DNA of 64,000 nt from a virus: the IMG/VR virus record IMGVR_UViG_3300024339_000005; one strand, written 5' to 3'. Below are positions 12,916-50,201 of this stretch, piece by piece. The first letter of the stretch is position 1. Each line of letters starts with the position of its first letter. The position numbers and the translations under genes are program-made. The notes under the pieces are model-generated. The model had not been told where the DNA came from and searched no databases. It saw only the letters and a program-made list of their open reading frames with translations.

Positions 12916-12954
12916 GTGAAAAGTGCATAAAAAGTCAAAAAAAATGAAATAAAT

Positions 12955-13270
12955 TGGGGGATTCTGTTTCTAGGTTCCCCCGAACCCAATGAGATCACGC
13001 TGCGATAGCGAAAGCCTCAAATGCAAAACGGTTATCGTTTGCGGTTACTTAATTGAGCCAGAACGCCTGCTCATACGACTATCTCCACTCACCTATTCAG
13101 CATCGGTCGATCCTAATTTCACCCCCAGCAAAAAAACACTGTCAACCACCTAGGTGATTTCGTTGGCTATGCCCAGAACTTTCATTCCTATTTAAACAAT
13201 GTTCTTATGGTGGAGGTGCGGGGTACCGCCCCCCGGTATCCGATATACTTTTCAATTCGCTTCATCAATA
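12955..13270 (-). ncRNA. ssrA: circularly permuted two-piece tmRNA (alphaproteobacterial type)
   Basis: acceptor piece ends CACCTCCACCA (13208); coding piece starts GGGGGTGAAATTAGGATCGAC (13126); G3:U70; tag ORF 13042-12995 = ANDNRFAFEAFAIAA*; late promoter at 13278-13285. Confidence 0.93.
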
Positions 13271-13476
13271 GCAACTTTATTTATACATACTCGGTGATAT
13301 GGGGTCAAGACATAAACAATCATTCCACCCATAATAAATCCGGCTATGAAGCCGATGTTATATGTCTTTCCATCAGGGCACATATATCTTGACGTTTTCG
13401 ACAATCATAATGCCTGCGTCAGCCCAGCCAGCCGCCATCAAAGCGACCATGAAAACAGCGCCACCCAGTAAATAAT

Positions 13477-21373: not shown

Positions 21374-21411
21374 AAAAAAATGCCCCAGAGTGGCCATTCC
21401 CCGGGGCATTT
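21374..21411 (-). terminator. intrinsic terminator
   Basis: AAATGCCCCGGGG...CTCTGGGGCATTTTTTTT. Confidence 0.8.
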
Positions 21412-21646
21412 CTCTTATTCATAGTCTTACGTCTTATACATCTATATCTCATATATGGGGTCTTATCCCCCTGTGGGCAGAGATTCCAGAATTCAGCACG
21501 ACACACTCTCGGTCTTGGGCTGCCGGTGTTTCTGGGCAGCCTTCTATCGAAAGATTTATATATCGCTCCTTCTTTTCTCCTCACGGTACCAGTAACCGAT
21601 AGTCACATTCGACTATTCTTGATCCTAGCATAAAGCCAGGCGTTTG

Positions 21647-22582
21647 TCAATCATAAATTACGCATTGTTCGCAAATAGTTCCGGTCACATCTTTTTCAAT
21701 ATGCTTGGCCCGTAACTCCTGAAACTTTTCAGAATGCCATGCGTCCATGAATGAAGTTGTATTAAGGTCACCCATATCAAACCTAGAGTCGTGGTCGAAG
21801 CAACAGGCGCTTAGGCGACCATCAAAGGAAATGTGCCCCTCGGTGAAAATACTCCAACATGGGAGTGGGTCGCGTAGCGCGTCAAGCCGACCACGGTTTC
21901 CTTGAACGAAAGTCCAATCTTCATTTTCGACCAAAGCAGCCTGGTTGTATAAAGGCAGCGCATACATTTCATCAAGGTGTGGGCTCAAGTCAGCCAGGTA
22001 TTCCTCGATCTTGTCAGCTTGGTCGCCTGTGTATTCGATAAAGGAAGCAGAGAGGGTGCAGTTATAGCCACCTTCTTCACGGACCTTGTAAGCACCCTTG
22101 ACGTTCTCGGCAATGGTGTAAAACAGTTCACCCTTGACCCGTGCGATTTCCTTGAATTGCTCCTCGTCGGCATAGTTCAATGAGAACTTGAGGCTATCGA
22201 GTCCAGCCTCCATGCATTCTTTCACCTTCTCGGGTGTAGACAGAGAACCGTTGGTTGTCAAAAACACATACGGATAACCGCAGTCTTCTTTGGCATACCG
22301 AATGGCTTCAGGCAACCTTGGGTCTAAAAATGATTCACCCAAATAAAACATTCCAAGTTCCTCGACTCCAGCCTCACGCATTTCTTTTACCACTCTTTTG
22401 AAGAGGTCCCAATCCATTGCGCCTGTTTGTCGTAAACGATCATTATGGGCACAAAATCCGCATCGAAAATTACATTTTCCTGTCAGTTCAATTTTCACAC
22501 TTTCGGGTGTGGGTGGCTTGAGAGAAAAATGTTTTTCTTTCATCCCTGTTATGTTATCAATCCGGTCGGTAATCTTACCCAT
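21647..22582 (-). CDS. radical SAM enzyme with SPASM/Twitch domain
   Basis: CNFRCGFC, GE, TTNGS, C-terminal CWSIF...G...ACCFD...CEQC. Confidence 0.9.
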   Translation of the reverse strand: MGKITDRIDNITGMKEKHFSLKPPTPESVKIELTGKCNFRCGFCAHNDRLRQTGAMDWDLFKRVVKEMREAGVEELGMFYLGESFLDPRLPEAIRYAKEDCGYPYVFLTTNGSLSTPEKVKECMEAGLDSLKFSLNYADEEQFKEIARVKGELFYTIAENVKGAYKVREEGGYNCTLSASFIEYTGDQADKIEEYLADLSPHLDEMYALPLYNQAALVENEDWTFVQGNRGRLDALRDPLPCWSIFTEGHISFDGRLSACCFDHDSRFDMGDLNTTSFMDAWHSEKFQELRAKHIEKDVTGTICEQCVIYD

Positions 22583-37697: not shown

Positions 37698-39155
37698 CTA
37701 GGCAGCAATCTTGTATCTGTCAACCATTACAGTTGCCAGCATGATTGCTTCTGGAGTCATATCTTCTCCCGAAAGAATTGACTTCAAAATGTTCGGTGAG
37801 AAACCTGAAACAAGCGCCGTGCCCGCTTCATCAAACCGAACGGGAACATTACCGTCACGGGCGTTCAGGTTCCAGAATACCACGTTTGGCATTTCGTAAC
37901 CAGCCTGACGGAACAGAGTCTTGGTTGCTTCCATGGCAGTCAAGTTGAAACTACCTGAAGCGCAATGGTCGAACTCCATATCAGACAGGATAACCAGCGT
38001 CTTAGGCATATCCTCTTGTGGAACACGGTGAGTCTGGGCGTGTGACAAAATCTTAGCCATAGCCTTCATCAAATCGGTGTTCATGCCCCAATCAGACCGG
38101 ATCATTGACATAAACTTTTCAATGATATCACCCTTTAAGTTTTCCAACTTTGGGTTACCGGAGAAGGTCAAGAACGTGTCCTTAAAAGCGCCCTCTTGCT
38201 TGTCTGCGATATACAAGCCAAGAGAGACCGCAACGTCCATACATGACAGGTTGTTGTTACCAGCAACGGGGCAACCCATTGAACCGGAGGTGTCAACCAT
38301 AGCCAGTATGTTGTCGTCACCCAACATGTTTGGAAGGGCGTTCCATTGCGCGATAATTACTTCCTTGTTAGAAACGGTGGTATCCTGACGCCAACCATAA
38401 TTCATGTTAGCCCGCAGAGACTTGATAACGTCATAAGGATAGATAGCCCCGGCGTTGATCTTTTCAGTGCCTGCTTCTAGTCCCTCACGGTACTTGCTAT
38501 AAGCATCCGTTGCGTTCTTAGAGAAAGCCTTTTGGTAACGAGCAGCCGCGACAGAAGGTACCTTGCCGAATTCAATTGCGTCCCATTCTTTGGCGCACAT
38601 TTGAGATTCAACAACCTTAGTCAGACCCACCAGAGTCTTGCGATAGAATTTTGGTGACCAGCCGAGGTTGCGACGAATATCGGCAGCCTTCTTACCCTTA
38701 CGAGGCATCCACTTAGCGCAGAGACCGTCACCAGCCTCAAGTGCCTTACGAATCATTTCGATTGCATAAACTTGGGCACGACCTGTGCCGCAATTCAGAA
38801 TATCATCCCAGCGACCCAATTCAGGCACCATTGCCAGTACGCTTTCGAATTCGTCTGGGTCCATGGTGCGTTCCATAACCAACAGTAGGCTACGGAAGGT
38901 CTGGCGTTCGCCAGCACCACCACGAATATCGCGGGCCCATAGAGCCGTACGAATAGCGAGGTCGGGGTTATGTTGGAAGGCTTTAGAGAATGCGCCTGTA
39001 ACATCATTGTTACGGCTAGACCCAATTTGGAAAAACAGGTCAGTGTTTACGTCAAGTGACGATGTGCGGGTAGCCATACCATTGAAGGTAAGCCCGTAGT
39101 CGTCACGCATACCAAGAGACTTGGTGTTGATTGAGTCGGTGAAAGTGTTCATCAT
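37698..39155 (-). CDS. DUF2828-type helical + vWA protein (Ro60/TROVE-like architecture)
   Basis: T.NG, DLFF, RDIRGGAGER, GRWDD, AKWMPRK, C-terminal vWA MIDAS DTSGSM, TFS, SDMEFD, VFWNL, VSGFS. Confidence 0.8.
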   Translation of the reverse strand: MMNTFTDSINTKSLGMRDDYGLTFNGMATRTSSLDVNTDLFFQIGSSRNNDVTGAFSKAFQHNPDLAIRTALWARDIRGGAGERQTFRSLLLVMERTMDPDEFESVLAMVPELGRWDDILNCGTGRAQVYAIEMIRKALEAGDGLCAKWMPRKGKKAADIRRNLGWSPKFYRKTLVGLTKVVESQMCAKEWDAIEFGKVPSVAAARYQKAFSKNATDAYSKYREGLEAGTEKINAGAIYPYDVIKSLRANMNYGWRQDTTVSNKEVIIAQWNALPNMLGDDNILAMVDTSGSMGCPVAGNNNLSCMDVAVSLGLYIADKQEGAFKDTFLTFSGNPKLENLKGDIIEKFMSMIRSDWGMNTDLMKAMAKILSHAQTHRVPQEDMPKTLVILSDMEFDHCASGSFNLTAMEATKTLFRQAGYEMPNVVFWNLNARDGNVPVRFDEAGTALVSGFSPNILKSILSGEDMTPEAIMLATVMVDRYKIAA

Positions 39156-39175
39156 TCTCTCCATTATAAGTTAGC

Positions 39176-39578: not shown

Positions 39579-39653
39579 TGGTACTCCCGGCTGGACTTGA
39601 ACCAACATCATAACCGTTATGAGCGATAGGCTTTACCGTTAAGCTACGAGAGC
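39579..39653 (-). tRNA. tRNA-Met/Ile2 (CAT)
   Basis: cloverleaf, CT-CAT-AA loop, CCA. Confidence 0.85.
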
Positions 39654-39658
39654 AATCT

Positions 39659-39734
39659 TGGAGCGGCCAGGGAGAATCGAACTCCACTCAGTACGGGTTG
39701 GAAACCCGACGACTGATCCCGTCAGCTTGGCCGC
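39659..39734 (-). tRNA. tRNA-Gly (TCC)
   Basis: GCGGCCA/TGGCCGC, TT-TCC-AA, U73, CCA. Confidence 0.85.
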
Positions 39735-39737
39735 AAT

Positions 39738-39811
39738 TGGTGCCGCTACGAGGAATCGAACCCCGAAATTCTGATTACAAAACAGACATTATGCCATTTA
39801 ATTATAGCGGC
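39738..39811 (-). tRNA. tRNA-Thr (TGT)
   Basis: cloverleaf, CCA. Confidence 0.9.
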
Positions 39812-40139
39812 GTTATTTCTTATTTCTCGGCTGGTCCTTCAATTGCGTTGATAACTTGTTCAACAGGATCAAACCCCGCTTCAATCGCAGCGGCTTCGGC
39901 AATTAGGTCTTGACCTTTATCACCAAATACTTTTTGTGGTGCGAGCCAGCGAATGCTTCTTGCAAGACGGGTAGGGCATTTTGTAATTACGCCACCGTTT
40001 GCTAGGAATTCGGCTGTCAGTCTTTCAATTTCTTTTCGTTGTTGAATTTTCTCAATTGAAGGCGATACCATCATTGTCTCTCTCCGATGTTTCAGTATTT
40101 ATTGATCATAGTCTATTTGGGTCGAAATGTCAATACTTT

Positions 40140-40421
40140 TTATCCGCCCATATAAATCTGGTCAAGCATTTCTTTGAAGGCAGATACCTTTTCAACACGA
40201 TTGGGCCACAAGATATATTCCTTTTCAGGGTTTTCACAGAGGTTCCGCAAGAGTGGTTGAATGGCATTATACAAATTATTCAACTTCTCGTCGGTCTCCT
40301 CTAAATCAAGTTGTGTTTCTGAGGCAGCCAGCGTCGCTGTTTCCGAGGCTGCGACCGCTTCTGTTACTACGGTCAGGTCATCGCCATCAACGAGTGAAAA
40401 ACCAAAATCAAATTCTTCCAT
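40140..40421 (-). CDS. conserved T4-like hypothetical protein
   Basis: FDFGFS, LYNAI.PLL.NL..NPEKEYILWPNR. Confidence 0.65.
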   Translation of the reverse strand: MEEFDFGFSLVDGDDLTVVTEAVAASETATLAASETQLDLEETDEKLNNLYNAIQPLLRNLCENPEKEYILWPNRVEKVSAFKEMLDQIYMGG

Positions 40422-40666
40422 CTAAATCTCCAAGTCTATTTTGTTGCCCATGTGGTCATACTTAGGCAATTTCTTTTCGTCTTTATTTATGTCATCAGGT
40501 GGCGTAGGTGGTTCGACTTTCCGCCTTTGCTCAATCCTTTCGTCATATTCAAATGTTGATCTTGTTTTGGCTAATTTCATTGTCTCTCTCAAATTGGTTA
40601 CGACAGGCACCGTCGCGCCCATCGTCTTAGTATATCCTGCTCTTGGACCTACAGATATACCGTTAT

Positions 40667-40740
40667 TGGTGCCACTAGATAGAATCGAACTATCATCTAT
40701 CCCGTACCAGGGGATTGCATTGCCATTGTGCTATAGCGGC
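40667..40740 (-). tRNA. tRNA-Thr (GGT)
   Basis: cloverleaf, CCA. Confidence 0.9.
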
Positions 40741-41063
40741 AGTAATTCTTGTGGTAAGTCGACCATATCAATCAATGTGATTTTATCGCCGTACAGACCT
40801 TGTATTTTATCCCATATCCCAGCCTGCGCCATTGACATTCTTTCAGCGCCAACATGACATTTATAAATGCTACCCGAATGACCGTGGAATAAATAACAAT
40901 CATCTTCTTCAAGGTAACTTGTGTAGGCGATACCAGAATTGATTCTCCATGAATCGCCGTCGAGATATCCACCACTCCAACCACCAAGAACTTTGTAAAG
41001 AACCTCGTCGTCGTCGTTTTCAATCCGCATAATTTTCCAGTGGTGCGGGTAATATTCAGTCAT
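40731..41063 (-). CDS. conserved phage hypothetical protein
   Basis: YKVLGGWSGGYLDGDSWRINSGI...GHSGSIY.C. Confidence 0.65.
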   Translation of the reverse strand: MTEYYPHHWKIMRIENDDDEVLYKVLGGWSGGYLDGDSWRINSGIAYTSYLEEDDCYLFHGHSGSIYKCHVGAERMSMAQAGIWDKIQGLYGDKITLIDMVDLPQELLPL

Positions 41064-41442
41064 TTTCGGCCTCCGATTTTTCTTTCCAGCCTGTATCACA
41101 TGATTTTTTTAAAATCCATATTACCGATAATGGCAACAAGACCAAAGACATTGAAAGAATTTCTGATTGAAAATATGTTAAACCAATTACCATTCCTATC
41201 ATAATAGACGCGCCGGCGACCAGCGGGCCAATCCCGATAACAATAAACGCCAATAAAATGAGAGGAATTGTGACAGCGCGTGCCAGCCATAAGAATAATT
41301 TGTTTCGGCAATATTCAGTTTTTGTTTTTGACTCATCTTCTAAATCAGAAAGATACTGCATAGGTATGGTCAAAAAATTGCCCACAGGTGTTATAAACGT
41401 ATCCACATAATCTTCGTAATCGTCAAATCCAAACATTTTCAT
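41056..41442 (-). CDS. membrane protein
   Basis: three hydrophobic segments. Confidence 0.5.
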   Translation of the reverse strand: MKMFGFDDYEDYVDTFITPVGNFLTIPMQYLSDLEDESKTKTEYCRNKLFLWLARAVTIPLILLAFIVIGIGPLVAGASIMIGMVIGLTYFQSEILSMSLVLLPLSVIWILKKSCDTGWKEKSEAEND

Positions 41443-41454
41443 TCTCTCTCAAAT

Positions 41455-41539
41455 TGGCGAACCCTGAAGGAGTCGAACCTTATGCCATCCACCCAACTCT
41501 AAGGTCCGGTTTAGAAGACCGGTGTCGGGAACAGGGTCC
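41455..41539 (-). tRNA. atypical tRNA-Arg (TCT): 8-bp acceptor, 4-bp T stem, no D arm
   Basis: GGACCCTG/CAGGGTTC-G-CCA, CCGGT-CT-TCT-AA-ACCGG, AAGG-TTCGACT-CCTT. Confidence 0.6.
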
Positions 41540-41556
41540 TAAAATTTATTCTGTGT

Positions 41557-41803
41557 CAGCCGTTTCAGAAACAACATGATCTTCACGGTGTGCCATTACA
41601 GCAATTTTGTATCGACGGCCAAATTCTTCAATTTTTTCAGCCAGCGCCAATTCAATTTCAGAATCTTCGCTATGCATCCAGCCGTTTCAGAAACAACATG
41701 ATCTTCACGGTGTGCCATTACAGCAATTTTGTATCGACGGCCAAATTCTTCAATTTTTTCAGCCAGCGCCAATTCAATTTCAGAATCTTCGCTATGCATC
41801 CAG
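41557..41803. repeat. perfect 122-bp tandem duplication
   Basis: 41557-41678 identical to 41679-41800, with CAG microhomology. Confidence 0.92.
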
Positions 41804-41982
41804 GCATTTTTCAGCCCTTCGCTTTCGATATAGTTAAGCAAGACTTCCTCAAGGTCGAGAGGCGGAACCTCAATCGACATTTGTTCGTCGTCGCCTTGTG
41901 CGGTCATGCAAATATACAGTTTGGGTTTTCCGGCAATGGAATCCATACCGATGGTCGCACTAACATCAAGTTCAAATTTCAT
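41596..41982 (-). CDS. hypothetical protein whose C-terminus is altered by the duplication
   Basis: MKFELD start after AAGGA RBS; the longer ORF call overlaps a tRNA. Confidence 0.5.
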   Translation of the reverse strand: MKFELDVSATIGMDSIAGKPKLYICMTAQGDDEQMSIEVPPLDLEEVLLNYIESEGLKNAWMHSEDSEIELALAEKIEEFGRRYKIAVMAHREDHVVSETAGCIAKILKLNWRWLKKLKNLAVDTKLL

Positions 41983-41997
41983 AATCAATTCCTTAGT

Positions 41998-42071
41998 TGG
42001 CAGCCCCGCGTGGATTCGAGCCACGATTTCCTGTGTCAGAGACAAGCGTTTTGCCGTTAAACTACAGGGCT
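41998..42071 (-). tRNA. tRNA-Gln (CTG)
   Basis: cloverleaf, CT-CTG-AC, CCA. Confidence 0.85.
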
Positions 42072-42209
42072 AATTTCTAATGCAACAAATTTTCAAGGCT
42101 GAATAATCAGCCCAAGGACAACAACCACGGCGACCCATAACTTGACTTGAAACATCAGCCAATAGGTATCATGCTCGTTCCATTTCATAATCAAATCTCT
42201 CTTTTGTTT

Positions 42210-42253
42210 CTCTATCTTAATTTGATCTTACGCTATTTTTCGGCAAATGTCAA
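42210..42253 (-). promoter_or_regulatory. early promoter repeat, variant class
   Basis: TTGACATTTGCCGAAAAATAGCGTAAGATCAAATTAAGATAGAGA; near-identical to 49362-49406. Confidence 0.75.
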
Positions 42254-42523
42254 TACTTTTAAGCGAGATAATTCATTTGGTCGAGAGGCATTTCGACAAT
42301 TTCTGGTGAGTTGATTGGGTAGCGAGTTTTATCACGGGTAGCGAGTGCGTCTTTTGCTGCACCTTCGCTATGGAATACGCCGAAGACATATAAGCCTTCA
42401 TGCTTGACATTTTCAGTCAGTAGGAATACGGTGACAGGCATCGGCTAACTCCTTTGTGCGGTATCTCTTATATAGTGATCTTCGCACAAAGCAAGGCAAA
42501 TGTCAAGTCTTTTTTTTGAGAAT

Positions 42524-42609
42524 TGGCGGATAGCGGAGTATTCGAAACTCAAACATTTCTGTTCCCTTCGGTTAGCAACCGAGCCTAGAACCTATCTAGT
42601 TCACTATCC
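42524..42609 (-). tRNA. tRNA-Ser (GCT)
   Basis: long variable arm, G73, CCA. Confidence 0.85.
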
Positions 42610-43024
42610 ATTTCTCTTTTCTTTACAGCTTTTCGGTATTCTATGTCATGGCGGAGCTTTTCAAGGATATGTTTCAAACCTTTGTTAGCATTACCAGGCA
42701 TCTTATGCGTTTCAGAACTTTTGATGATTGTATGAATATCGAAAAAACTGATTTGACCACCAATGGAACATTCTTCAATCAACCCGGCTATTTGCCATGA
42801 GGTTCTACCCCAACAAACACCGCGTTTCTTTTCTTGTCGCAATGATTCATCATTGACCAGATTTTTCACGGCATCAGCATTAAACATAGTTTGCGCTAAT
42901 TTTGATTTCGGGTCCATCATAAACTCCATAAAAAGTTGCCGCAGTCGCGTACCTGCTCCCTTTCGGGTATGCGCCTTAGTGGTGTCTGGGCCTTACTATC
43001 GGAACCCCAAACTGCGATCTCTTA

Positions 43025-43582
43025 TTAAGCGGCTACTTCAACGCCGCCTGTCCATTCACCCAACCATGGTATCCATGATTCGTGGGCCACCTTCAATGGG
43101 TACATACGACGAAGGTCGAGTAACTTCCAATATGAAGGCGTGTATGGCTTATGCTTTGGCTTCCAACGACCCTTAGGTGCGAAGTCGCTTTTTGCGTTGT
43201 TGCATGTTGCACAACAAGCCACTACGTTATCCCATACGTTGCGACCACCCTTTGATTGTGGGTGAACGTGGTCAACGGTGATGTTGGTCAAGGTCAGACC
43301 CTTCTCACAGTAGGCGCAGACGCCATGATCTCTGTAGTAAAGGTATTCAGACGTTAGACCAATGATACGTGGGATGTTGGTGTATTGCTTCCGCATGATA
43401 ACAGAAGGCCAAGCCATCTGTAGCGTTGGTGTTTGAATCATTCGGTCGTATTCTTCAACAACAGAACATGTACCATTAACGATTCTTGTCACAGCATCTT
43501 CAGCCGGAATCCATTCCGGTATCGGCAAAAGTTGGATGGGTGTCATATCCGCATTTAATACTAATGTTCTTAAACCAATCAT
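43025..43582 (-). CDS. HNH endonuclease (McrA-like)
   Basis: LVLNAD, RD...CAYC, TVDHVHP.SKGG...WDNVVACC..CN..K. Confidence 0.88.
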   Translation of the reverse strand: MIGLRTLVLNADMTPIQLLPIPEWIPAEDAVTRIVNGTCSVVEEYDRMIQTPTLQMAWPSVIMRKQYTNIPRIIGLTSEYLYYRDHGVCAYCEKGLTLTNITVDHVHPQSKGGRNVWDNVVACCATCNNAKSDFAPKGRWKPKHKPYTPSYWKLLDLRRMYPLKVAHESWIPWLGEWTGGVEVAA

Positions 43583-43680
43583 GATAACCCCCTTTGCCGA
43601 AATTTCCAGTGTTATAAATAATGTTAGTCGCGGTGTATCAAGCACCCACTAACCCTAATGCTTTATGGAGCAATCAGCAT

Positions 43681-43770
43681 ATGACTATTTATTACACCTA
43701 CAGAATCACTTCCAAAACTACTGGTCAGCATTATTATGGCGTTCGCTATGCGAAAAATTGCCATCCTCAT
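43681..43770 (+). pseudogene. frameshifted, truncated GIY-YIG homing endonuclease
   Basis: MTI then, after a frameshift, YYTYRITSKTTGQHYYGVRYAKNCHP; paralog of the 22671 remnant; late promoter at 43613-43620. Confidence 0.7.
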
Positions 43771-43837
43771 GGTTGGATTTGAACCAACGACCTACGGCTT
43801 TCAATGCAAAATTAGTGGCTGAAGGTATCCTAAAAAT

Positions 43838-43913
43838 TGGCAGCCCCTGTAGGATTCGAACCCACAACCACCTGACTCAAAATCAGGCGCACTACCAATT
43901 GTGCTAAGGAGCT
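43838..43913 (-). tRNA. tRNA-Gln (TTG)
   Basis: cloverleaf, CCA. Confidence 0.9.
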
Positions 43914-43919
43914 AGAATT

Positions 43920-43995
43920 TGGTGGACCCGGTCAGATTCGAACTGACAACCTTTTCCGTGCAAGGGAAATACACTCCCAATTGTGTTACGGGCCC
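43920..43995 (-). tRNA. tRNA-Ala (TGC)
   Basis: G3:U70, CCA. Confidence 0.92.
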
Positions 43996-44001
43996 ATGAA
44001 T

Positions 44002-44075
44002 TGGAGCGACCGGTCGGATTCGAACCGACATATTCTTGTTGGCAACAAGAGATTCTACCTTTGAATTACGGCTGC
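44002..44075 (-). tRNA. tRNA-Gly (GCC)
   Basis: cloverleaf, CCA. Confidence 0.9.
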
Positions 44076-44081
44076 ATTGTT

Positions 44082-44159
44082 TGGTACCCATAGTAGGATT
44101 CGAACCTACAAACACAAGTTTTTAAGACTGGCTGCGTTTCCTGGTTAGCATATACGGGC
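44082..44159 (-). tRNA. tRNA-Leu (TAA), short variable arm
   Basis: CT-TAA-AA loop, CCA. Confidence 0.82.
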
Positions 44160-44165
44160 AGAATT

Positions 44166-44241
44166 TGGTACCCATAGGCGGAGTCGAACCCCCAAACACC
44201 TGCTTTTGAAACAGGCCGCTTTGCCATTTGCGTATACGGGC
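44166..44241 (-). tRNA. tRNA-Leu (CAA), short variable arm
   Basis: TT-CAA-AA loop, CCA. Confidence 0.85.
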
Positions 44242-44244
44242 ATA

Positions 44245-44571
44245 TTAAACGCTGAAGGATGAACCGCAACCGCACTGATTTTTGTGCATGGGATTATTGA
44301 ACACAAATCCCGATTGAAGTAATTCCTCAACATAATCTATCTCTGTCCCGAACAGGAACAATTGAGATTTTGAATCTATCAATACTTTGATGCCATGCTG
44401 ATCTAAAACTTCATCGCCTTCCTCAATCTCGTTTGAGAATTCCATGAAATTTGAAAAGCCAGAACATCCACCCGATTTCACGCCCAAGCGAACAAACAAA
44501 TAATCCTTACCTTCTAGTAGGGATTTCATTCGGGTAGCGGCGTTCTCGGTTATCGTTGCTATGTCATTCAT
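44245..44571 (-). CDS. iscA: A-type Fe-S carrier (IscA/ErpA/HesB family)
   Basis: ITE.A, GGCSG, GTEIDY, GFVFNNP, CGCGSSF; late promoter at 44577-44584. Confidence 0.92.
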   Translation of the reverse strand: MNDIATITENAATRMKSLLEGKDYLFVRLGVKSGGCSGFSNFMEFSNEIEEGDEVLDQHGIKVLIDSKSQLFLFGTEIDYVEELLQSGFVFNNPMHKNQCGCGSSFSV

Positions 44572-44591
44572 ATTGGTATTTATATGTCCTT

Positions 44592-44680
44592 CTTATAAAC
44601 ATGCGGGCGTTCTACCATTAAACTAGCCAAGGTTTCCCCGGAGTGGGACTCGAACCCACATTTCCCGCTAACTCTATAAG
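44592..44680 (-). ncRNA. circularly permuted tRNA-like RNA (YrlA-like topology)
   Basis: order: outer stem, GCGGG, T arm, loop-closed acceptor stem, D arm, CCCGC, outer stem. Confidence 0.7.
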
Positions 44681-44768
44681 TTCTCCTAAAGCTGATTATC
44701 TACCGCGTGTAGTCGCGTCCATAGGATAGGCGTGTATTGACGCCTCGTTTTACTTCTGACAAGTATTT

Positions 44769-44844
44769 TGGTGCTAGGAGAGAGATTCGAACTCCCACCG
44801 CATGGTTCTTCAAACCATCGCTCTACCGTTGGAGCTACCCTAGC
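44769..44844 (-). tRNA. tRNA-Phe (GAA)
   Basis: cloverleaf, CCA. Confidence 0.9.
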
Positions 44845-45413
44845 GAATATTTTTCAAAATCTAAGTCTTCAATAATCAATATATTTTTATCTTTATGTTG
44901 TTTTTGAACTTCAATCATTTTTTCTTTATCGTTGCCCCACCAATATCCTTTTATTTCTATGAATAAATTTAATTCGGGTAAGAAAAAATCTGGAGTATAA
45001 TGTTTTTCTTTATCTTTTATTGTATATTTCCAAGGCTTACACCGTTCCCATTCAATTTTTCTTTCTTCTAAAAACATAGCAAACTTTTGCTCCCATGTTC
45101 CTTGAACTTTTTTACCGGCGACTGTAAACCATTTAGAACGTCCGCCGCGATTATTTGTGGATTGAATTATTGATAGTCGTTTGTTCGCTTCGTCGTTGGG
45201 CCTATTAGGACCATATTTTTCCAAAGCAAGTTTTCCAGCTTCGCTTAAAGTTCTTGCCACAATAAAACCAAGTCTATTTGCTCTCATATGGTCACTTTGA
45301 GTCAAAGGCGAGACAGACGAGATTTCTCTCATAGATTTTCCCTGGTTGTAAAGAACAGCATAACGCTTTGCCCTTTCAATCCATTTTGTTTGTTCATCAT
45401 ATTTTAATTTCAT
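44835..45413 (-). mobile_element. putative PD-(D/E)XK homing endonuclease
   Basis: QGTWE, HYTPDF.LP....FIEIKGYW...DK.K; AT-rich; late promoter at 45419-45426; inserted among tRNAs. Confidence 0.7.
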
Positions 45414-45432
45414 ACAAGTATTTATATAAAAC

Positions 45433-45475
45433 AGAAATTACAAACCGGCGCATTAACCATAACTGCCTACAATGC
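45433..45475 (-). pseudogene. 5' half of a tRNA (Tyr GTA-like), truncated at the anticodon
   Basis: GCATTGTAGGCAGTTATGGTTAATGCGCCGGTTTGTA; its 5' end resembles the tRNA-Tyr at 48335-48419. Confidence 0.5.
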
Positions 45476-45479
45476 AAAT

Positions 45480-45554
45480 TGGTCGGAAACCCCGGAGTCG
45501 AACCGGGTATTGCCTGCTCCCAAAGCAGGAGGATTACCGTCTTCCTCGTTTCCG
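45480..45554 (-). tRNA. tRNA-Pro (TGG)
   Basis: C1:G72, CCA. Confidence 0.9.
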
Positions 45555-45560
45555 TTGATT

Positions 45561-45637
45561 TGGTACCCCTGGAGAGACTCGAACTCCCAACACCTCGGAC
45601 CTAAACCGAGTGACTCTTCCAATTGGCCTACAGGGGC
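45561..45637 (-). tRNA. tRNA-Leu (TAG), short variable arm
   Basis: TT-TAG-GT loop, CCA. Confidence 0.85.
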
Positions 45638-45644
45638 ATATGTT

Positions 45645-45731
45645 TGGTTGCGGAAACCCGATTTGAACGAGTGTCGTGAAGGTTATGAGCCTACCGCTGG
45701 GGCCTGATTACCACTCCAGCATCATTCCGCA
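45645..45731 (-). tRNA. initiator-like tRNA-Met (CAT) with enlarged D arm
   Basis: TGCGGAA/TTCCGCA-ACCA, CT-CAT-AA, TTCAAAT T loop. Confidence 0.7.
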
Positions 45732-45754
45732 TCATGTTGTATTTAGTTCTTGGT

Positions 45755-45825
45755 TGGTGCCGGAGCTAGGAATCGAACCTAGAACATATTCCGTATGAGA
45801 GAATAGTGAATCCAATTCCACCGAC
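45755..45825 (-). tRNA. tRNA (CAT) with shortened D region
   Basis: ATTCT-CT-CAT-AC-GGAAT, canonical T arm, CCA. Confidence 0.6.
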
Positions 45826-45828
45826 ATA

Positions 45829-46097
45829 ATAGCTTCGGTCACTTTCGCAGACCGACAACGGATAGTTATTCAGGTGGTTCCCTTTTTTTGTATTGTCCAT
45901 GGCTCATCAGGAAATCGTTATTCACTATCGACCCTAGAGGGATTAACCACCGTGGCCCGTTTTCTTAAATTGGCTTTGCGAGGTGTTCATTTAAGACCGA
46001 CTACTTTTGCGTTTCGAACCGCGCTTTCGTCACCCATACCCCGGCTCATTTCGCCGGTACTTTATCACTCGGGAGCTACCCGGGATTATTAAGCTAT
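45829..46097 (-). ncRNA. ~270-nt structured non-coding RNA of unknown family
   Basis: terminal ATAGCTT/AAGCTAT pairing, several internal hairpins, no credible ORF, flanked by tRNAs. Confidence 0.45.
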
Positions 46098-46105
46098 CGC
46101 AAACT

Positions 46106-46183
46106 TGGCGATCTGGAAGGGACTCAAACCCTCATACACCCGGGAGACAACCGAGGACATTAGTTCATTTATGATACCAGACC
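46106..46183 (-). tRNA. tRNA-Asp (GTC)
   Basis: cloverleaf, G73, CCA. Confidence 0.82.
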
Positions 46184-46255
46184 ATGATTTTTGGGGACAG
46201 TTTAAAGACTTGCCCTGGTCTGTATTTGGACGGATTTTGCTCCGCCGGGCGTGTT

Positions 46256-46329
46256 TGGTACCCGCAGGAAGAATCGAACTTCCATATTTCGGTTATCAGC
46301 CGAATGTTCTACCGTTGAGCTATACGGGC
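46256..46329 (-). tRNA. tRNA-Ile (GAT)
   Basis: cloverleaf, CCA. Confidence 0.92.
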
Positions 46330-46334
46330 ATAAT

Positions 46335-46408
46335 TGGCGAAGGTGCGAGGAATCGAACCCCGGTCCGCAGGTTTGGAATCTGCTATTCTACCACTGAAAT
46401 ACACCAAC
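46335..46408 (-). tRNA. tRNA-Trp (CCA), copy 1
   Basis: TT-CCA-AA loop, CCA end; two U.U mismatches in acceptor stem. Confidence 0.8.
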
Positions 46409-46414
46409 ATAAAT

Positions 46415-46489
46415 TGGCGAAGGTGAGAGGAATCGAACCCCCGACGCTCGGTTTTGGAGACCGACGCTCTACCACTGAGCTACACCAAC
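46415..46489 (-). tRNA. tRNA-Trp (CCA), copy 2
   Basis: CT-CCA-AA loop, CCA end; same acceptor stem as copy 1. Confidence 0.85.
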
Positions 46490-46496
46490 ATGAATT

Positions 46497-46590
46497 AGTT
46501 ATCCCCTTCGGAATCGAACCCACATCGCTCTCTAATCTGGAGACTGTGCGGTTTATAAAACCGGTGTTTTACCGTTAAACTATAGGGGTA
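46497..46590 (-). tRNA. tRNA-Ile (TAT) with long variable arm
   Basis: canonical D arm, CCGGT-TT-TAT-AA-ACCG, extra arm, imperfect T stem, no encoded CCA. Confidence 0.6.
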
Positions 46591-46594
46591 TTAT

Positions 46595-46665
46595 TGGTGG
46601 CTTGGAGGGAGTTTCACCCTATCTTTTCCCTTATTAGGGGACTGCTTTGATTAAGCTACCGCGCC
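46595..46665 (-). tRNA. atypical tRNA-Ile (AAT)
   Basis: GTCCC-CT-AAT-AA-GGGAA, AGGG-TGAAACT-CCCT, ACCA end. Confidence 0.55.
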
Positions 46666-47279
46666 ATAGTTCGACCTTTGCGCCATCCTTCTGGAATAAC
46701 ATCGGTCTTTTTGATCTTCTTGGTTTCTTGGTTGTTTGTTATCCACATGGAACCGAACTGGGAACTTTGTTCACCTGTGTTTCTTCCTTTAAGGCATTTA
46801 CTTATCTTCTTTTTAGTATCTTCTGTATGTTTTTTGCCTTTGAAATTATTATATTTTGCCAAGCCGTCTATATGAACATTAGCAAAATTTATTTTTGATG
46901 TTCTATGTCCCGCGGCCACTCTGGATGGATGATTTTTGACTTGACCAGAATTTCGTTTATGAAAGTTTTCAGACTTCGACCAATATTCTCTATTGAGATA
47001 TGACCAGCCACCATGACCACCAGAACATAAATTATAGGTGTCTTCTCGTTGGCAAAATTCTTCTGTAACCAGTTCCGCTTCCTTGGCATTCATTTCTTGT
47101 TCGGTATCAAATACATGAAGGATTTTCTTTTCAAGGACTTCTTTACCATGTTTTTCGATAACTCGTCTTATGAGTTTACCAGAACCCATATAGCCATCAT
47201 CCAATTTTTTTGTTTGATGTTTACCGATATAGATTTTACCGGTTCTGGTATCGGTCGTTTGATAGATCGTATAGAACAT
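46656..47279 (-). mobile_element. GIY-YIG homing endonuclease (Seg-like)
   Basis: YTIYQTT...TGKIYIGKHQT..LDDGYMGSG, YNL..GG, FKGKKHTE.TK.KIS, GSMWITN, GWRKGR. Confidence 0.9.
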
Positions 47280-47284
47280 AAGAT

Positions 47285-47332
47285 ACCTCGTTTGTCTAAT
47301 AGTCTTACATATGGCTATTTAGACAAACGAGG
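47285..47332 (-). promoter_or_regulatory. RBS-sequestering hairpin containing a late-promoter variant
   Basis: ACCTCGTTTGTCTAA/TTAGACAAACGAGGT stem covers the GAGG RBS; TCTAAATA in the 5' arm, as in T4 I-TevI/seg control. Confidence 0.7.
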
Positions 47333-47342
47333 TTCTCTATGT

Positions 47343-47415
47343 CGACCCGACGAGACTCAAACTCGCATTATCCACATTGAAAGTGTGGTTTCCTATTTCA
47401 TTTAGAAGACGGGTC
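47343..47415 (-). tRNA. tRNA-Glu (TTC)
   Basis: CT-TTC-AA loop; ends G-ACA (no encoded CCA). Confidence 0.8.
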
Positions 47416-47420
47416 GGTAT

Positions 47421-47508
47421 TGGAGGAGAACAATGTAATCGAAACATCGGGGCTACTAACCACCGGCACGGTATTCAACACCGCTTTGCCACCTTGGCGC
47501 TGCTCTCC
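47421..47508 (-). tRNA. tRNA-Ser (TGA)
   Basis: long variable arm, CCA. Confidence 0.8.
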
Positions 47509-47515
47509 ATGAATT

Positions 47516-47592
47516 TGGCTCCTGTGACACGGCTCGAACGTGTAACTTCCGGCTTAACAGGCCGACTCCCCTCCCAATAGGGACCCACAGGA
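47516..47592 (-). tRNA. tRNA-Asn (GTT)
   Basis: TCCTGTG/CACAGGA-G-CCA. Confidence 0.85.
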
Positions 47593-47600
47593 AAAAACTT

Positions 47601-47677
47601 TGGTACCCGGGATAGGATTCGAACCTACATAAATCACACCGTGTAAAGGTGCTGCTTCCCCATCAAGCCAACCGGGC
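47601..47677 (-). tRNA. tRNA-Val (TAC)
   Basis: cloverleaf, CCA. Confidence 0.88.
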
Positions 47678-47854
47678 AAAGTGTTTGTTATTACTACCGC
47701 CTACTAGCATTTTGTTGGATACCGCACCATCGGCGTCCAGAATGTTGGTGCCTAGTAGACAGTAGAAATAACAAATTTATCACAAACATTGCGCGACTGG
47801 AGGCAGGCGAAATCCTCTGGCTACCACACGTCCCTTGTGGATGGTCGCTAACTT

Positions 47855-47933
47855 TGGAGGATACGGAGGGAATCAAACCCTCGAATACACGGTTTAAGAG
47901 ACCGTTGGTATAGTCACCACTACCTTCGTATCC
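47855..47933 (-). tRNA. tRNA-Lys (CTT)
   Basis: CT-CTT-AA loop, CCA. Confidence 0.82.
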
Positions 47934-47942
47934 ATATATGTG

Positions 47943-48006
47943 CTGTAATCCTTGTTGTTTATTCGCTATTATTTTATAATAGTTCGATATTCAACAAGGA
48001 TTACAG
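47943..48006. repeat. long hairpin with 15-bp perfect outer stem
   Basis: CTGTAATCCTTGTTG ... CAACAAGGATTACAG. Confidence 0.8.
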
Positions 48007-48008
48007 AA

Positions 48009-48086
48009 TGAGGACCGCCTGGGAATCGAACCCAGATCTAACAAACTTAAAAGGATTGCCCTATAGCCACTACTAGGAAGCGGTCC
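48009..48086 (-). tRNA. tRNA-Lys (TTT)
   Basis: CT-TTT-AA loop; no full CCA. Confidence 0.75.
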
Positions 48087-48168
48087 ATTAATTTTTGGGG
48101 CGGGAGGTTTAATGCACCGTTCCCCGTAAGTGCAACGTTTGAAGCTAGGCCACAACGCCATCTCTTTT

Positions 48169-48242
48169 TGGGGCGGAGCCGGGAATCGAACCCTGGTCTC
48201 TTGATTCACAGTCAAGAATTCTGCCACTGAACTAGCAACGCC
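48169..48242 (-). tRNA. tRNA-His (GTG) with G-1:C73
   Basis: CT-GTG-AA loop, C-CCA end. Confidence 0.85.
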
Positions 48243-48252
48243 ATATTTGAAT

Positions 48253-48329
48253 TGGGGCTTCTGACAGGATTCGAACCTGCATTATGTCTCCTTCGTAGGG
48301 AGGTGCCAAATCCATTTGACTACAGAAGC
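48253..48329 (-). tRNA. tRNA-Arg (ACG)
   Basis: cloverleaf, CCA. Confidence 0.85.
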
Positions 48330-48334
48330 ATGAT

Positions 48335-48419
48335 TGGTGCATCGGGAAGGAATCGAACCTTCAAAGTAAAAAACGGGAGATTTACAGTCTCTTAGGCTCA
48401 CCACCTGCCTAACCAATGC
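48335..48419 (-). tRNA. tRNA-Tyr (GTA)
   Basis: CT-GTA-AA loop, long variable region, CCA. Confidence 0.8.
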
Positions 48420-48426
48420 ATATAAA

Positions 48427-48530
48427 ATAAACGCTAGAACGGAATCGAACCGTTTCTATTCCCAACTTTACACCAGTAGCCTACACATTCCCTTGGGAAA
48501 GTTTTGTTGTGTAGAACATCAAGCGTTTAT
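48427..48530 (-). ncRNA. tRNA-like RNA with T arm but no canonical D or anticodon arm
   Basis: ATAAACGCT/AGCGTTTAT stem, AACGG-TTCGATT-CCGTT. Confidence 0.5.
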
Positions 48531-48535
48531 AAAAA

Positions 48536-48636
48536 GGGGGAACTCGACGCTTCGCCAAAAGCGGAATTCAACCCAGTAATTTTCAGAGAAAGGGGAGTTG
48601 AACCCCTTTGATAGAAATTAGTTCGGTGTCGACCCC
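48536..48636 (-). ncRNA. stem-closed RNA with a T-loop hairpin
   Basis: GGGG-TCGAC/GTCGA-GTT-CCCC outer stem, AAGGGG-TTCAACT-CCCCTT. Confidence 0.45.
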
Positions 48637-48687
48637 TTACTAACTTCCGAAACATTCAAGTTTCTTAACACGCCCGCACCCTTAATT

Positions 48688-48788
48688 TGGCAGCCATAAC
48701 AGGAATCGAACCTGTATTCGGTATTCGCAAGATATACCGGACTTTCTTACTTGCGGCTTAAAAGTCAGCCCCCAATGGGCATAGGCTA
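48688..48788 (-). ncRNA. tRNA-like RNA with CCA end and enlarged anticodon loop
   Basis: D-like, anticodon-like, long variable and T arms; GCCA end. Confidence 0.55.
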
Positions 48789-48793
48789 TAATT

Positions 48794-48869
48794 TGGAGAG
48801 CATGGTCGGAATCGAACCGACTTCAATTTCGCTTTGCAGGCGAAGACCTTACCATTCGGCATCACGCTC
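48794..48869 (-). tRNA. tRNA-Cys (GCA)
   Basis: U73, CCA. Confidence 0.9.
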
Positions 48870-48873
48870 ATTG

Positions 48874-49078
48874 TAAACAGTTTTGAAGAAAGGTGATCCG
48901 GGGCTCCGCACCCTCCATATGTCTAGTAATTACTCTCCGCCGTTTGCAACCGACTTTGAATTCTAATCATATGCCCTCTAGTGACCCTCATATGTAAACC
49001 TCTGGAAACATACTTGTTACGGACTCTAGCAGTTTATTCCTCGTAGATTGTGGAACCACATTTCATCAAAAATGTTTA
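48874..49078 (-). ncRNA. ~205-nt stem-closed non-coding RNA
   Basis: TAAACATTTTTGATGAAA / TTTCTTCAAAACTGTTTA terminal stem. Confidence 0.45.
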
Positions 49079-49361
49079 TTTAACCAATTCTCTGCTATCG
49101 GTGTCCACATCAAAGATGCTTCGTTGCCCTCCAGACAGGCCCTACCTCACTCACAGCCGCAGGTCGCTGTACTCGTTTACTTCTGGGTTTTTTACGTCTT
49201 TGCTGACTGCTACATGAAACCCCAGGATTCTGATTTCATAATCGTTCTCTATTTATTTTCTGTGTCCATAACTATCAGCCGAACGATTTGCTTCTAGTAG
49301 TTTTAACGGACTAACTCTTGACCAATCTCTTTCGTTCTCTCCTCTAACTCTCTCGTTTGTT

Positions 49362-49406
49362 TCTCTATCTTAATTTGATCATACGCTATTTTTCGGCAAA
49401 TGTCAA
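49362..49406 (-). promoter_or_regulatory. early promoter at the head of the tRNA island (variant repeat)
   Basis: TTGACA-17-TATGAT. Confidence 0.8.
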
Positions 49407-49424
49407 GCACTAATTTCACTTTTT

Positions 49425-49634
49425 TCAAATAAACTTTTCACAAAAGATTATCGAATTACCAGGAAAAACCAAACTCACATTCTCAAGAAATTCTTCTTCG
49501 GTTCTAGCGGATTTCACGCGAACCCAGTTATTACTCTTTTTTAATCCACCATCATTCCAAACGTCACTCATCAAGGCTGCATCACCAGAGAACCAGGCTC
49601 CTGTTTTTCCGAATTGCGCTACAATCTTTTTCAT
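49425..49634 (-). CDS. early hypothetical protein
   Basis: GAGAGAG RBS after promoter repeat. Confidence 0.55.
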   Translation of the reverse strand: MKKIVAQFGKTGAWFSGDAALMSDVWNDGGLKKSNNWVRVKSARTEEEFLENVSLVFPGNSIIFCEKFI

Positions 49635-49651
49635 AATCTCTCTCTTGGTTC

Positions 49652-49696
49652 TTGATCTTACTATCTGATCATGCACTATTTCTGACCAAATGTCAA
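49652..49696 (-). promoter_or_regulatory. conserved early promoter repeat
   Basis: same 45-bp element. Confidence 0.8.
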
Positions 49697-49717
49697 CCCC
49701 TAAATGCAATAAAACTC

Positions 49718-49755
49718 AAAAAAAATGCCCCATCCTATATTCTAGGGTGGGGCAT
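49718..49755 (-). terminator. intrinsic terminator (attenuator terminator)
   Basis: ATGCCCCACCCTA-GAATA-TAGGATGGGGCAT followed by a T run. Confidence 0.85.
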
Positions 49756-49787
49756 GAAAGTTACTACTTTTACTACTTAAACTTTCA

Positions 49788-49901
49788 TCATCCCATCCCG
49801 GTTCCGCCAATATTATCTTGGCGTTTCGCCCAGGCGCAACTCACCATCGGAAATGATTCCGACAATAGATATGACGTATGGGCGAGTAATATGGAAGTCA
49901 T
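49788..49901 (-). CDS. putative attenuator leader peptide (37 aa, all 20 amino acids)
   Basis: MTSILLAHTSYLLSESFPMVSCAWAKRQDNIGGTGMG*, between late promoter and terminator. Confidence 0.65.
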   Translation of the reverse strand: MTSILLAHTSYLLSESFPMVSCAWAKRQDNIGGTGMG

Positions 49902-49949
49902 GGTCTTTTCTTTATTTGTAGCCAGTAACGAAGGCTTGTTGTTCACTTT

Positions 49950-49957
49950 TATTTATA
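49950..49957 (-). promoter_or_regulatory. T4-type late promoter TATAAATA
   Basis: exact match ~50 nt upstream of the leader ORF. Confidence 0.8.
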
Positions 49958-49985: not shown

Positions 49986-50201
49986 TCAACCTTTTTTATC
50001 CATGATGTAGGGCGCCATGTTCTTGGTTTCGTCTTTACCAAGGCTGGTGTTCTTGCGCTCTTTATGCGCTTCCATCTGGTTCAAAACCCGACGGATAGGA
50101 TTCTTGTTAGCAATCCGAACCGACTTCAAGGTCTTCTTCGATACGTTGCGACCGGTACCTTTCGATACCTGCTTGGTGCGCTTGTTCCTTACTGACGACA
50201 T
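49986..50201 (-). CDS. small basic hypothetical protein
   Basis: Lys/Arg-rich; GGAGAG RBS; promoter at 50228-50256. Confidence 0.55.
   Translation of the reverse strand: MSSVRNKRTKQVSKGTGRNVSKKTLKSVRIANKNPIRRVLNQMEAHKERKNTSLGKDETKNMAPYIMDKKG

Follow-up and report, generated by a model that had tools for sequence, protein, structure and literature searches.

The window analysed here is a stretch of 64,000 nucleotides (nt) of viral DNA (IMG/VR record IMGVR_UViG_3300024339_000005), belonging to an uncultured T4-like phage of 140-167 kb from a marine metagenome (JGI Ga0233448_1000049 and others). On its minus strand, between positions 49957 and 49718, lies a small unit that points towards a large island of tRNA and non-coding RNA (ncRNA) genes. 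Within it a T4-type late promoter (TATAAATA) is followed by an open reading frame (ORF) of 37 codons, a spacer hairpin and an intrinsic terminator, past which stand a sigma-70-type promoter and then the tRNA island. A first-pass annotation, made from the sequence, had proposed that the unit is a transcription attenuator in which a leader peptide containing every amino acid gates the late transcription of the island. The features of the unit and of its surroundings are collected in Table 1.

The late promoter predicted at 49957-49950 was found to be an exact TATAAATA on the minus strand. This octamer occurs 12 times in the window as opposed to 2.3 expected copies, and one copy precedes the baseplate gene at 1586, as T4-type late promoters do. 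Upstream of the unit lies a gene of 71 amino acids (aa) with its 3' end at 49986 on the minus strand, and 49 nt separate the octamer from the ATG of the leader ORF. The ORF (49901-49788) had been described accurately, including its 20 amino acids and 32 codons and the Leu, Ser, Thr, Gly and Ile codons listed for it; 13 of the amino acids occur once each, the commonest (Ser) occurs five times, and no single amino acid dominates. Inside the ORF are two stable hairpins. The segment 49806-49886 folds at -35.3 kcal/mol (z = -5.3) and the whole ORF has a z of -3.9 against a window background with a mean z of -0.42 and a standard deviation of 1.28, which puts its structure within about the top 1-2% of the window; a pausing function or a role like that of the "1:2" structure is possible for these hairpins. 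The spacer hairpin P1 begins on the last base of the leader stop codon, the distance from the stop codon to the end of the U-tract is about 70 nt, and the TTGACA-17-CATGAT promoter begins 21 nt past the U-tract. The tRNA island was confirmed to lie downstream on the same strand (48869-39579), with 27 tRNAs at the ARAGORN default and 30 at a relaxed threshold that together cover all 20 amino acids, and when the sequence between the 49718 terminator and the array was read by eye no further intrinsic terminator was seen.

Table 1. Positions in the window of the switch unit, the neighbouring cassettes and the tRNA island.
Feature	Position	Strand	Basis or detail
T4-type late promoter TATAAATA	49950..49957	-	exact consensus
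Purine-rich, weak Shine-Dalgarno (SD)-like stretch AAAGAAAAG	49905..49913	-	duplex energy with anti-SD -0.9 kcal/mol
Leader ORF	49788..49901	-	ATG 49901; 37 codons + TGA (49790-49788); 20 amino acids, 32 different codons
Two stable hairpins within the ORF (~49885-49826, 49822-49806)	49806..49885	-	fold energy against background
G-run GGGAUGGG in the last codons, 5' strand of antiterminator extension	49792..49799	-	pre-terminator minimum-energy fold
Spacer hairpin P1 (AUGAAAGUU, 17-nt loop, AACUUUCAU), 9 bp	49754..49788	-	seen in both conformers
Intrinsic terminator: 11-bp stem with one C.A mismatch, 5-nt loop, A + eight U	49718..49753	-	stem ~-18 kcal/mol
Repeated early (sigma-70-type) promoter and 5' untranslated region cassette	49635..49706	-	repeat copy; TTGACA 49696-49691, CATGAT 49673-49668, GAGAGAGA ribosome-binding site
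Inserted material between switch and array	49303..49634	-	69-aa ORF 49634-49425; early cassette 49406-49378; 41-aa ORF 49428-49303
tRNA/ncRNA island, first gene tRNA-Cys at 48869	39579..48869	-	ARAGORN
Early-cassette sites	53043, 49696, 49406, 42253, 40133, 34331, 30398, 28856, 21341, 20902, 18815, 13787, 12915 + others	-	repeat type

Folding of the unit gave two alternative structures. Before the 3' arm of the terminator exists, the minimum-energy fold extends the AUGAAAGUU/AACUUUCAU hairpin by the pairing GGG(A)UGGG:CCCACCC (-19.1 kcal/mol), the CCCACCC lying at about 49750-49744, whereas the full-length fold holds the same hairpin together with the terminator (-26.4 kcal/mol). The antiterminator partners lie at -9 to +2 of the leader stop codon, a stretch that a ribosome standing there would cover. 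Thus the earlier proposal that the last codons and the stop pair with CCCACCC, in a structure that excludes the terminator, was borne out, and the predicted folds of the window contain the mutually exclusive antiterminator and terminator by which leader-peptide attenuators are recognized.

The completeness of the leader was set against chance. The probability that 37 codons contain all 20 amino acids is 0.24-0.46%, depending on the model, and among the 169-317 ORFs of 30-45 codons in the window 1.0-2.1 complete ones are expected and 2 were observed. As about one such ORF per 64-kb window is expected by chance, completeness alone is equivocal. For complete ORFs of at most 40 codons the expectation is 0.4-0.7 in 128 kb (both strands), and by our own arithmetic the chance that an unrelated one falls in this slot of about 230 nt is near 1e-3. 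An ORF arisen by chance inside a late small RNA or at a boundary between early cassettes was the reading first taken from the window alone, and it was dropped after the systematic scan of related loci described below.

At the far end of the island (37698-39164, minus strand) lies a gene for a 488-aa protein of PHROG 850, annotated as "RNA-binding protein", whose relatives carry the Pfam domains DUF2828 and DUF7788. Since this DUF2828-type protein is conserved beside tRNA arrays in 41 IMG/VR contigs, it is a useful marker for fetching arrays, and the comparison set was composed of the 41 loci encoding its relatives (38-71% identity). In a first scan, ATG-initiated ORFs of 25-50 codons preceded by TATAAATA were collected; 6 of the 35 contained all 20 amino acids, and all six stood directly before the first tRNA of an array of 25-28 genes. 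A systematic scan then covered the 1.1 kb before each visible start of a tRNA array, with any start codon allowed, in 18 loci including the window. It was found that 11 of the 18 loci (L015, L018, L024, L026 and the identical L021, L027, L030, L031, L033, L042 and the window) carry, ahead of the array, a complete ORF 32-42 codons long; they represent eight lineages, namely the window and seven from freshwater; for L027 the top-ranked ORF of the systematic scan lay elsewhere and the unit was taken from the first scan. Such an ORF is present in 2.75% of 581 random 1.1-kb stretches from the same loci, and by our arithmetic the chance of the count is about 1e-9, with the caveat that several freshwater lineages share ancestry and the loci are not fully independent. 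The distance from the end of the ORF to the first tRNA is 137-273 nt in the freshwater loci. No complete ORF was found before the arrays of L039, L045, L048 and L052, L038 has no ORF of the size range there, the ORF of L041 has 18 amino acids in 28 codons, and the region of L053 is cut by the contig end. Chance does not explain the position of the ORF in its slot, repeated as it is in related phages.

Like the peptide, the competing folds recur. Ten units were folded, nine with a complete ORF (the window included) and L041 with 18 of the 20 amino acids, and in all ten the pre-terminator minimum-energy structure was one nested hairpin in which the C-rich 5' arm of the terminator is paired around the spacer hairpin. 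The pairing partners are G-rich and fall within roughly the last ten codons or immediately behind them (-28 to +3 of the stop, with one more at -41 in L018), the spacing from stop to terminator is 18-34 nt (33 nt in the window), and the energy gain falls in the low tail of the shuffles in every unit (P 0.000-0.075). Several of the freshwater units also have a hairpin upstream of the G-run in the pre-terminator fold. In most units TATAAATA stands 29-59 nt before the start codon, while L024, L026 and L030 have sigma-70-like hexamers upstream instead. An AAGGA precedes the start in five freshwater units and a similar A/G-rich stretch in L026; in L024 and L030 the ATG follows a -10-like hexamer by a few bases, and these two leaders may be leaderless. 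Sigma-70-type hexamers after the terminator were found in four freshwater units by regular expression, and in the others weaker candidates were read by eye. The layout that had been anticipated before tRNA arrays of other T4-like phages, a conserved architecture with a divergent peptide, was encountered in the freshwater units that were folded.

Two pattern scans added further variants (loci L115-L124), from which it can be seen what is kept as these leaders diverge. Five variants of the L027/L042 lineage have 8-22 differences over about 39 residues, and their length changes are whole codons; all five keep the 20 amino acids, when random replacements would keep completeness in 2-11% of trials per pair. 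In L118 the Tyr of a shared Phe-Gly-Tyr site is lost and a Tyr is present near the N-terminus instead. Three variants of the L015 type are also complete. RNAalifold recovered the antiterminator helix, with one compensatory change from A-U to G-C and several wobble changes. The leaders of the related phages are almost unalignable, with a mean column identity of 27%. Conservation is one of composition and not of sequence, and we conclude that the trait under selection is amino-acid completeness.

The first-pass annotation had also noted the spread of codons over isoacceptors and suggested that the leader audits the whole tRNA pool; an audit of isoacceptors codon by codon was not supported. Pooled leader codons readable by the phage tRNAs number 252 of 316, against 251.8 expected from gene usage, and in the window 32 of 37 leader codons (28 of 36 in a second count) are readable by the anticodon list, against about 81% in genes; a codon checklist, in which the leader would be written in codons read by the phage tRNAs, found no support, as readability is no better than that of ordinary genes. 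Distinct codons number 300 as opposed to 275 under gene codon usage (z 4.7) and 289.5 under unbiased synonymous choice (z 2.15). Codon diversity is thus barely above unbiased synonymous choice and an audit of individual isoacceptors is not supported.

In view of the sequence features, the pair of competing conformers and a design that recurs and is conserved in related phages, we consider it moderately likely that 49957-49718 is a ribosome-dependent transcription attenuator with a leader selected to contain every amino acid, and the unit probably increases the late output of tRNAs when ribosomes slow down. From the classical model of leader-peptide attenuation we infer that the leader is translated, which way the switch turns and what it responds to; the late timing is taken from the promoter type. 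In the mechanism that we propose, the late promoter would start an RNA of about 225 nt. A ribosome translating the 37-codon leader would reach the stop codon and cover the G-run and the beginning of the spacer hairpin, which would leave the C-rich 5' arm of the terminator free to pair with its own 3' arm, and transcription would end at the U-tract. If the ribosome were held earlier, at any codon whose charged tRNA is scarce, or had never been loaded, the G-run would pair with the 5' arm of the terminator around the spacer hairpin. With the antiterminator formed, the polymerase would continue through the two small genes of the early cassettes into the tRNA island. The hairpins within the ORF may pause the polymerase and let the ribosome catch up. 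Early in infection, transcription of the island would start separately, at the two sigma-70-type promoters that lie past the terminator.

Leader-peptide attenuators are well known from amino-acid operons (trpL, hisL, leuL, thrL, pheL and the ilv leaders), where a stalled ribosome upstream favours read-through, and trpL has a similar distance of about 70 nt from the stop codon to the end of the U-tract. Like the leaders of the trp, his and leu type, the unit places a short ORF after its promoter and ahead of an intrinsic terminator, and has an antiterminator strand that a ribosome at the stop codon could cover. Unlike them, it has no run or enrichment of one regulatory amino acid but contains every amino acid, it would control tRNA genes and not biosynthetic enzymes, and it is a phage element behind a T4-type late promoter that would be bypassed early by sigma-70-type promoters past the terminator. 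The T-box senses one uncharged tRNA by direct RNA-RNA contact without translation. It shares with the proposed switch the link between tRNA charging and the choice of antiterminator or terminator, but no T-box model matched the window unit. The closest published broad sensor of translation stress that works by stalling on an upstream ORF (uORF) is the whiB7/wblC attenuator of Actinobacteria, in which a stall in the uORF is believed to cause antitermination; whiB7 is activated by the loss of many amino acids, tRNAs or synthetases, and the composition of the uORF sets what is sensed (PMC10274678). The whiB7 uORF is enriched in alanine and controls a transcription factor, whereas the window leader is complete and its output would be a tRNA array. 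The first-pass annotation knew of no description of such a system, and our full-text searches, some of them directed at this question, likewise turned up no publication that describes a complete-alphabet leader or phage tRNA genes under attenuation.

Several findings weigh against this attenuator. The conformer with the terminator is favoured over the antiterminator by 7 kcal/mol. When the 80 nt upstream were shuffled, as many bases in the C-rich arm were paired in 67% of the shuffles, and the energy gain was matched in 24% (P 0.24); with another shuffle design the energy gain of the alternative pairing had a P of 0.015, so the significance of the window pairing as a single case depends on the design of the shuffle. 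The SD of the leader is weak, as had been conceded from the outset: at -0.9 kcal/mol it is weaker than that of 83% of the window genes, and random sites are as good. The codon log-odds of the leader (-0.04) is at the level of spurious small ORFs, as compared with 0.23 +/- 0.15 for genes, and GC content by codon position is not gene-like. The first tRNA (tRNA-Cys, 48869) lies 919 nt downstream of the leader, with two promoters, two ORFs and a structured RNA in between. The two early promoters, which had also been named as a caveat, are present at 49696 and 49406, and further late-type promoter motifs (copies of TATAAATA) occur inside the island at 45426 and 44584. Most amino acids are represented by one codon each, which predicts a weak response to a single shortage. 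The nine contigs of the window phage are 100% identical across the unit region and a diverged relative of the window unit was not found, which leaves no substitution pattern in the window lineage. Finally, when hidden Markov models built from 14 freshwater leaders and units, as peptide and as DNA, were run on the window, other places ranked first and none of the listed matches covered 49718-49957. The proposal of an attenuator with a leader of all amino acids draws its support from the comparison across lineages, and from the window alone it was unsupported.

The membership of the window unit in the freshwater group is one of architecture and design, not of demonstrated descent, as no homology to the freshwater leaders could be detected; a MAFFT alignment gave only loose shared features, an early His and a Ser-x-Trp. 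What the window and freshwater units share is a complete ORF of 32-42 codons, a terminator whose C-rich 5' arm pairs, around a spacer hairpin, with a G-run close to the 3' end of the leader, a tRNA array in the same orientation and, in most of them, TATAAATA and the sigma-70-type hexamers past the terminator. They differ in sequence, in source (marine as opposed to freshwater) and in the gap to the array (919 as opposed to 137-273 nt); in the window this gap holds two copies of the repeated early cassette, with their small ORFs, and a structured RNA. Homologues of the unit were sought in several ways. Blastn of the unit against INPHARED gave nothing, nor did two freshwater units match any cultured phage there; IMG/VR was scanned with the two flanking proteins and with the pattern of the early cassette, and again no homologue of the unit was found. 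A protein search with the methyltransferase had its nearest match in an unrelated siphovirus and led to no homologue of the unit, and one with the antisense ORF returned itself only. A hairpin pattern run over metagenome contigs gave 57 unrelated matches, none of them homologous by blastn. The nearest relative lineage has about 70% nt identity and is represented by four contigs (L053, L056 and L057, with L012 or L055 as the fourth). These four, although independently assembled, all break off at the same 42-aa YccV-like fragment (position 1-175), some 650 nt ahead of tRNA-Cys, which suggests a repeat or hypervariable junction where the unit would lie.

One alternative, in our judgement rather improbable, is that the ORF is incidental and that the unit acts by itself as a late small RNA of about 225 nt, or else forms the structured mRNA 3' end of the upstream 71-aa gene, with a terminator of its own. 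It would account for the strong structure of the ORF sequence (z = -3.9, core -5.3), and the transfer-messenger RNA (tmRNA) of the phage has the same layout of TATAAATA, structured RNA, terminator and early cassette; a similar unit lies at 21615-21375 (z = -4.7). The weak SD, the codon usage resembling that of non-coding sequence and the failure of gene callers to call the ORF in the nine contigs that have gene calls all agree with it. It leaves unexplained that a complete ORF stands in the equivalent slot of seven other lineages and stays complete through 8-22 substitutions, and the region has no Rfam match. Terminated attenuator RNAs can act as small RNAs, for instance rnTrpL (PMC6614838), and a small RNA and an attenuator would not exclude each other.

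The second of these units (21375-21648, minus strand) is self-contained: its sigma-70-like promoter is followed by about 240 nt of structured RNA (21615-21375, z = -4.7), a terminator and an early cassette. Its terminator at about 21385-21420 (AUGCCCC.../...GGGGCAU-U8) is of the same type as the one at 49718, and the unit has no Rfam match and no obvious ORF.

About as doubtful is an ordinary boundary of the PeSL (promoter-early stem-loop) type, in which the terminator would only shield the next early cassette from transcription arriving from upstream, and TATAAATA and the ORF would be chance features without a regulatory role. PeSLs consist of a stem-loop terminator and a strong sigma-70 promoter flanking ORFans in the hyperplastic regions of T4-type phages (PMC2839356, PMC4122927). 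By its sequence, the 49718 terminator together with the early promoter is a composite of this type, next to a 71-aa gene for which a protein search returned only itself and which is thus an ORFan, and the arrangement fits the published description. The early promoter belongs to a repeat of about 70 nt (TTGACA, 17 nt, C/TATGAT, a conserved leader and a GAGAGA ribosome-binding site), of which the repeat finder aligned 10-13 copies, and minus-strand promoter sites that match the repeat hexamers number 17. The terminator stands 21 nt before one of the 17, and an upstream terminator was found at three of them (49696, 12915 and 21341), the last two sharing the layout. In addition, about one-fifth of the TATAAATA copies are expected by chance. 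Like published PeSLs, these repeats combine a terminator stem-loop, a conserved sigma-70-type promoter, an SD and a start codon, many times over in an ORFan region. Published PeSLs are without a translated leader and without a competing antiterminator, whereas the window stem-loop would double as the terminator of the proposed switch. A boundary of this kind thus accounts for the terminator and the early promoter but not for the leader: a complete ORF of at most 40 codons would fall in the slot by chance at about 1e-3, and promoter, pangram ORF and terminator recur before the tRNA arrays of related phages. The extra DNA between switch and array, two early cassettes with small ORFs, would fit an insertion mediated by PeSLs.

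We regard as very unlikely an RNA-only switch, similar to a riboswitch or a T-box, whose structured leader binds a ligand or a tRNA and whose reading frame is unused. A structured domain followed by competing hairpins would suit it, and in several freshwater units a CGCACA nucleotide motif is kept, third codon positions included, but the motif is absent from the window unit, and such a switch predicts neither the completeness of the peptide nor length changes in whole codons. In an Rfam scan the unit region matched no family, and T-box and riboswitch models gave only sub-threshold, terminator-driven hits at E up to 10. Least credible of all is a late gene for a functional micro-protein of 37 residues with its own promoter and terminator. 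Promoter, ORF and terminator do form a complete small transcription unit and the N-terminal half of the peptide is moderately hydrophobic, but the SD is weak, the peptide belongs to no PHROG family, a 52-aa form of the leader matched nothing among 1.84 billion representative proteins except a translated tandem repeat, hits to which were dismissed as artefacts, and it is composition and not sequence that is conserved among the related leaders.

If the attenuator is real, it may be extended, tentatively and against our own expectation, to a phage counter-measure that senses all aminoacyl-tRNAs, where late depletion or cleavage of tRNAs would stall the leader and turn on replacement tRNAs together with the neighbouring genes for RNA repair and rescue. 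The trigger would then be the depletion or cleavage of any tRNA through host defences or through the shut-off by the phage itself. Such a switch would bear on the open question of why, and at what time, phages need large sets of tRNAs: tRNA supply would be controlled by demand, with the phage gauging the remaining translation of the cell and answering with its own tRNAs. It would be a general regulatory principle of phages with large tRNA arrays, achieved in a small design of about 240 nt, and it would extend attenuation from the feedback of single pathways to a sensor of translation as a whole, from enzymes to tRNA genes and from bacteria to phages. This window contributes a marine example, unrelated in sequence to the freshwater group. 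As no sequence homology links the two, the design would either be of great age or have arisen independently on more than one occasion.

With respect to the host, the window phage is absent from INPHARED and was not recovered in the IMG/VR scans made here. Judged by the baseplate protein its nearest cultured relatives are myoviruses of Alphaproteobacteria, at less than 30% identity. A two-piece (permuted) tmRNA lies at 12953-13312 on the minus strand and fits the alphaproteobacterial model (Rfam RF04321, 92 bits; RF01849, 89 bits), which is a hint of an alphaproteobacterial host. The RF04321 match begins 6 nt after the copy of TATAAATA at 13285-13278, and the tmRNA has its own terminator, followed by an early cassette.

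Some further observations concern the tRNA arrays. Inside the island a unit of 122 nt is perfectly duplicated in tandem (41557-41800), and a sub-threshold match to YrlA, a Y RNA-like RNA, was seen at 44575-44691 on the minus strand (25 bits as opposed to a gathering score of 69). Arrays of the related phages L053 (2623-2697), L039, L041, L045 and L052 contain tRNAs with a CUA anticodon, labelled "Pyl" by ARAGORN, which are possible amber suppressors; none were found in the window. Directly before the first array tRNA a motif near GTTCTTTAAAAATT is conserved in L015, L018, L024, L026, L027, L030 and L042, and a similar TTTCTTCAAAACTG is present at 48871-48891 on the minus strand of the window, directly before its first tRNA. 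This motif may be a processing or leader signal.

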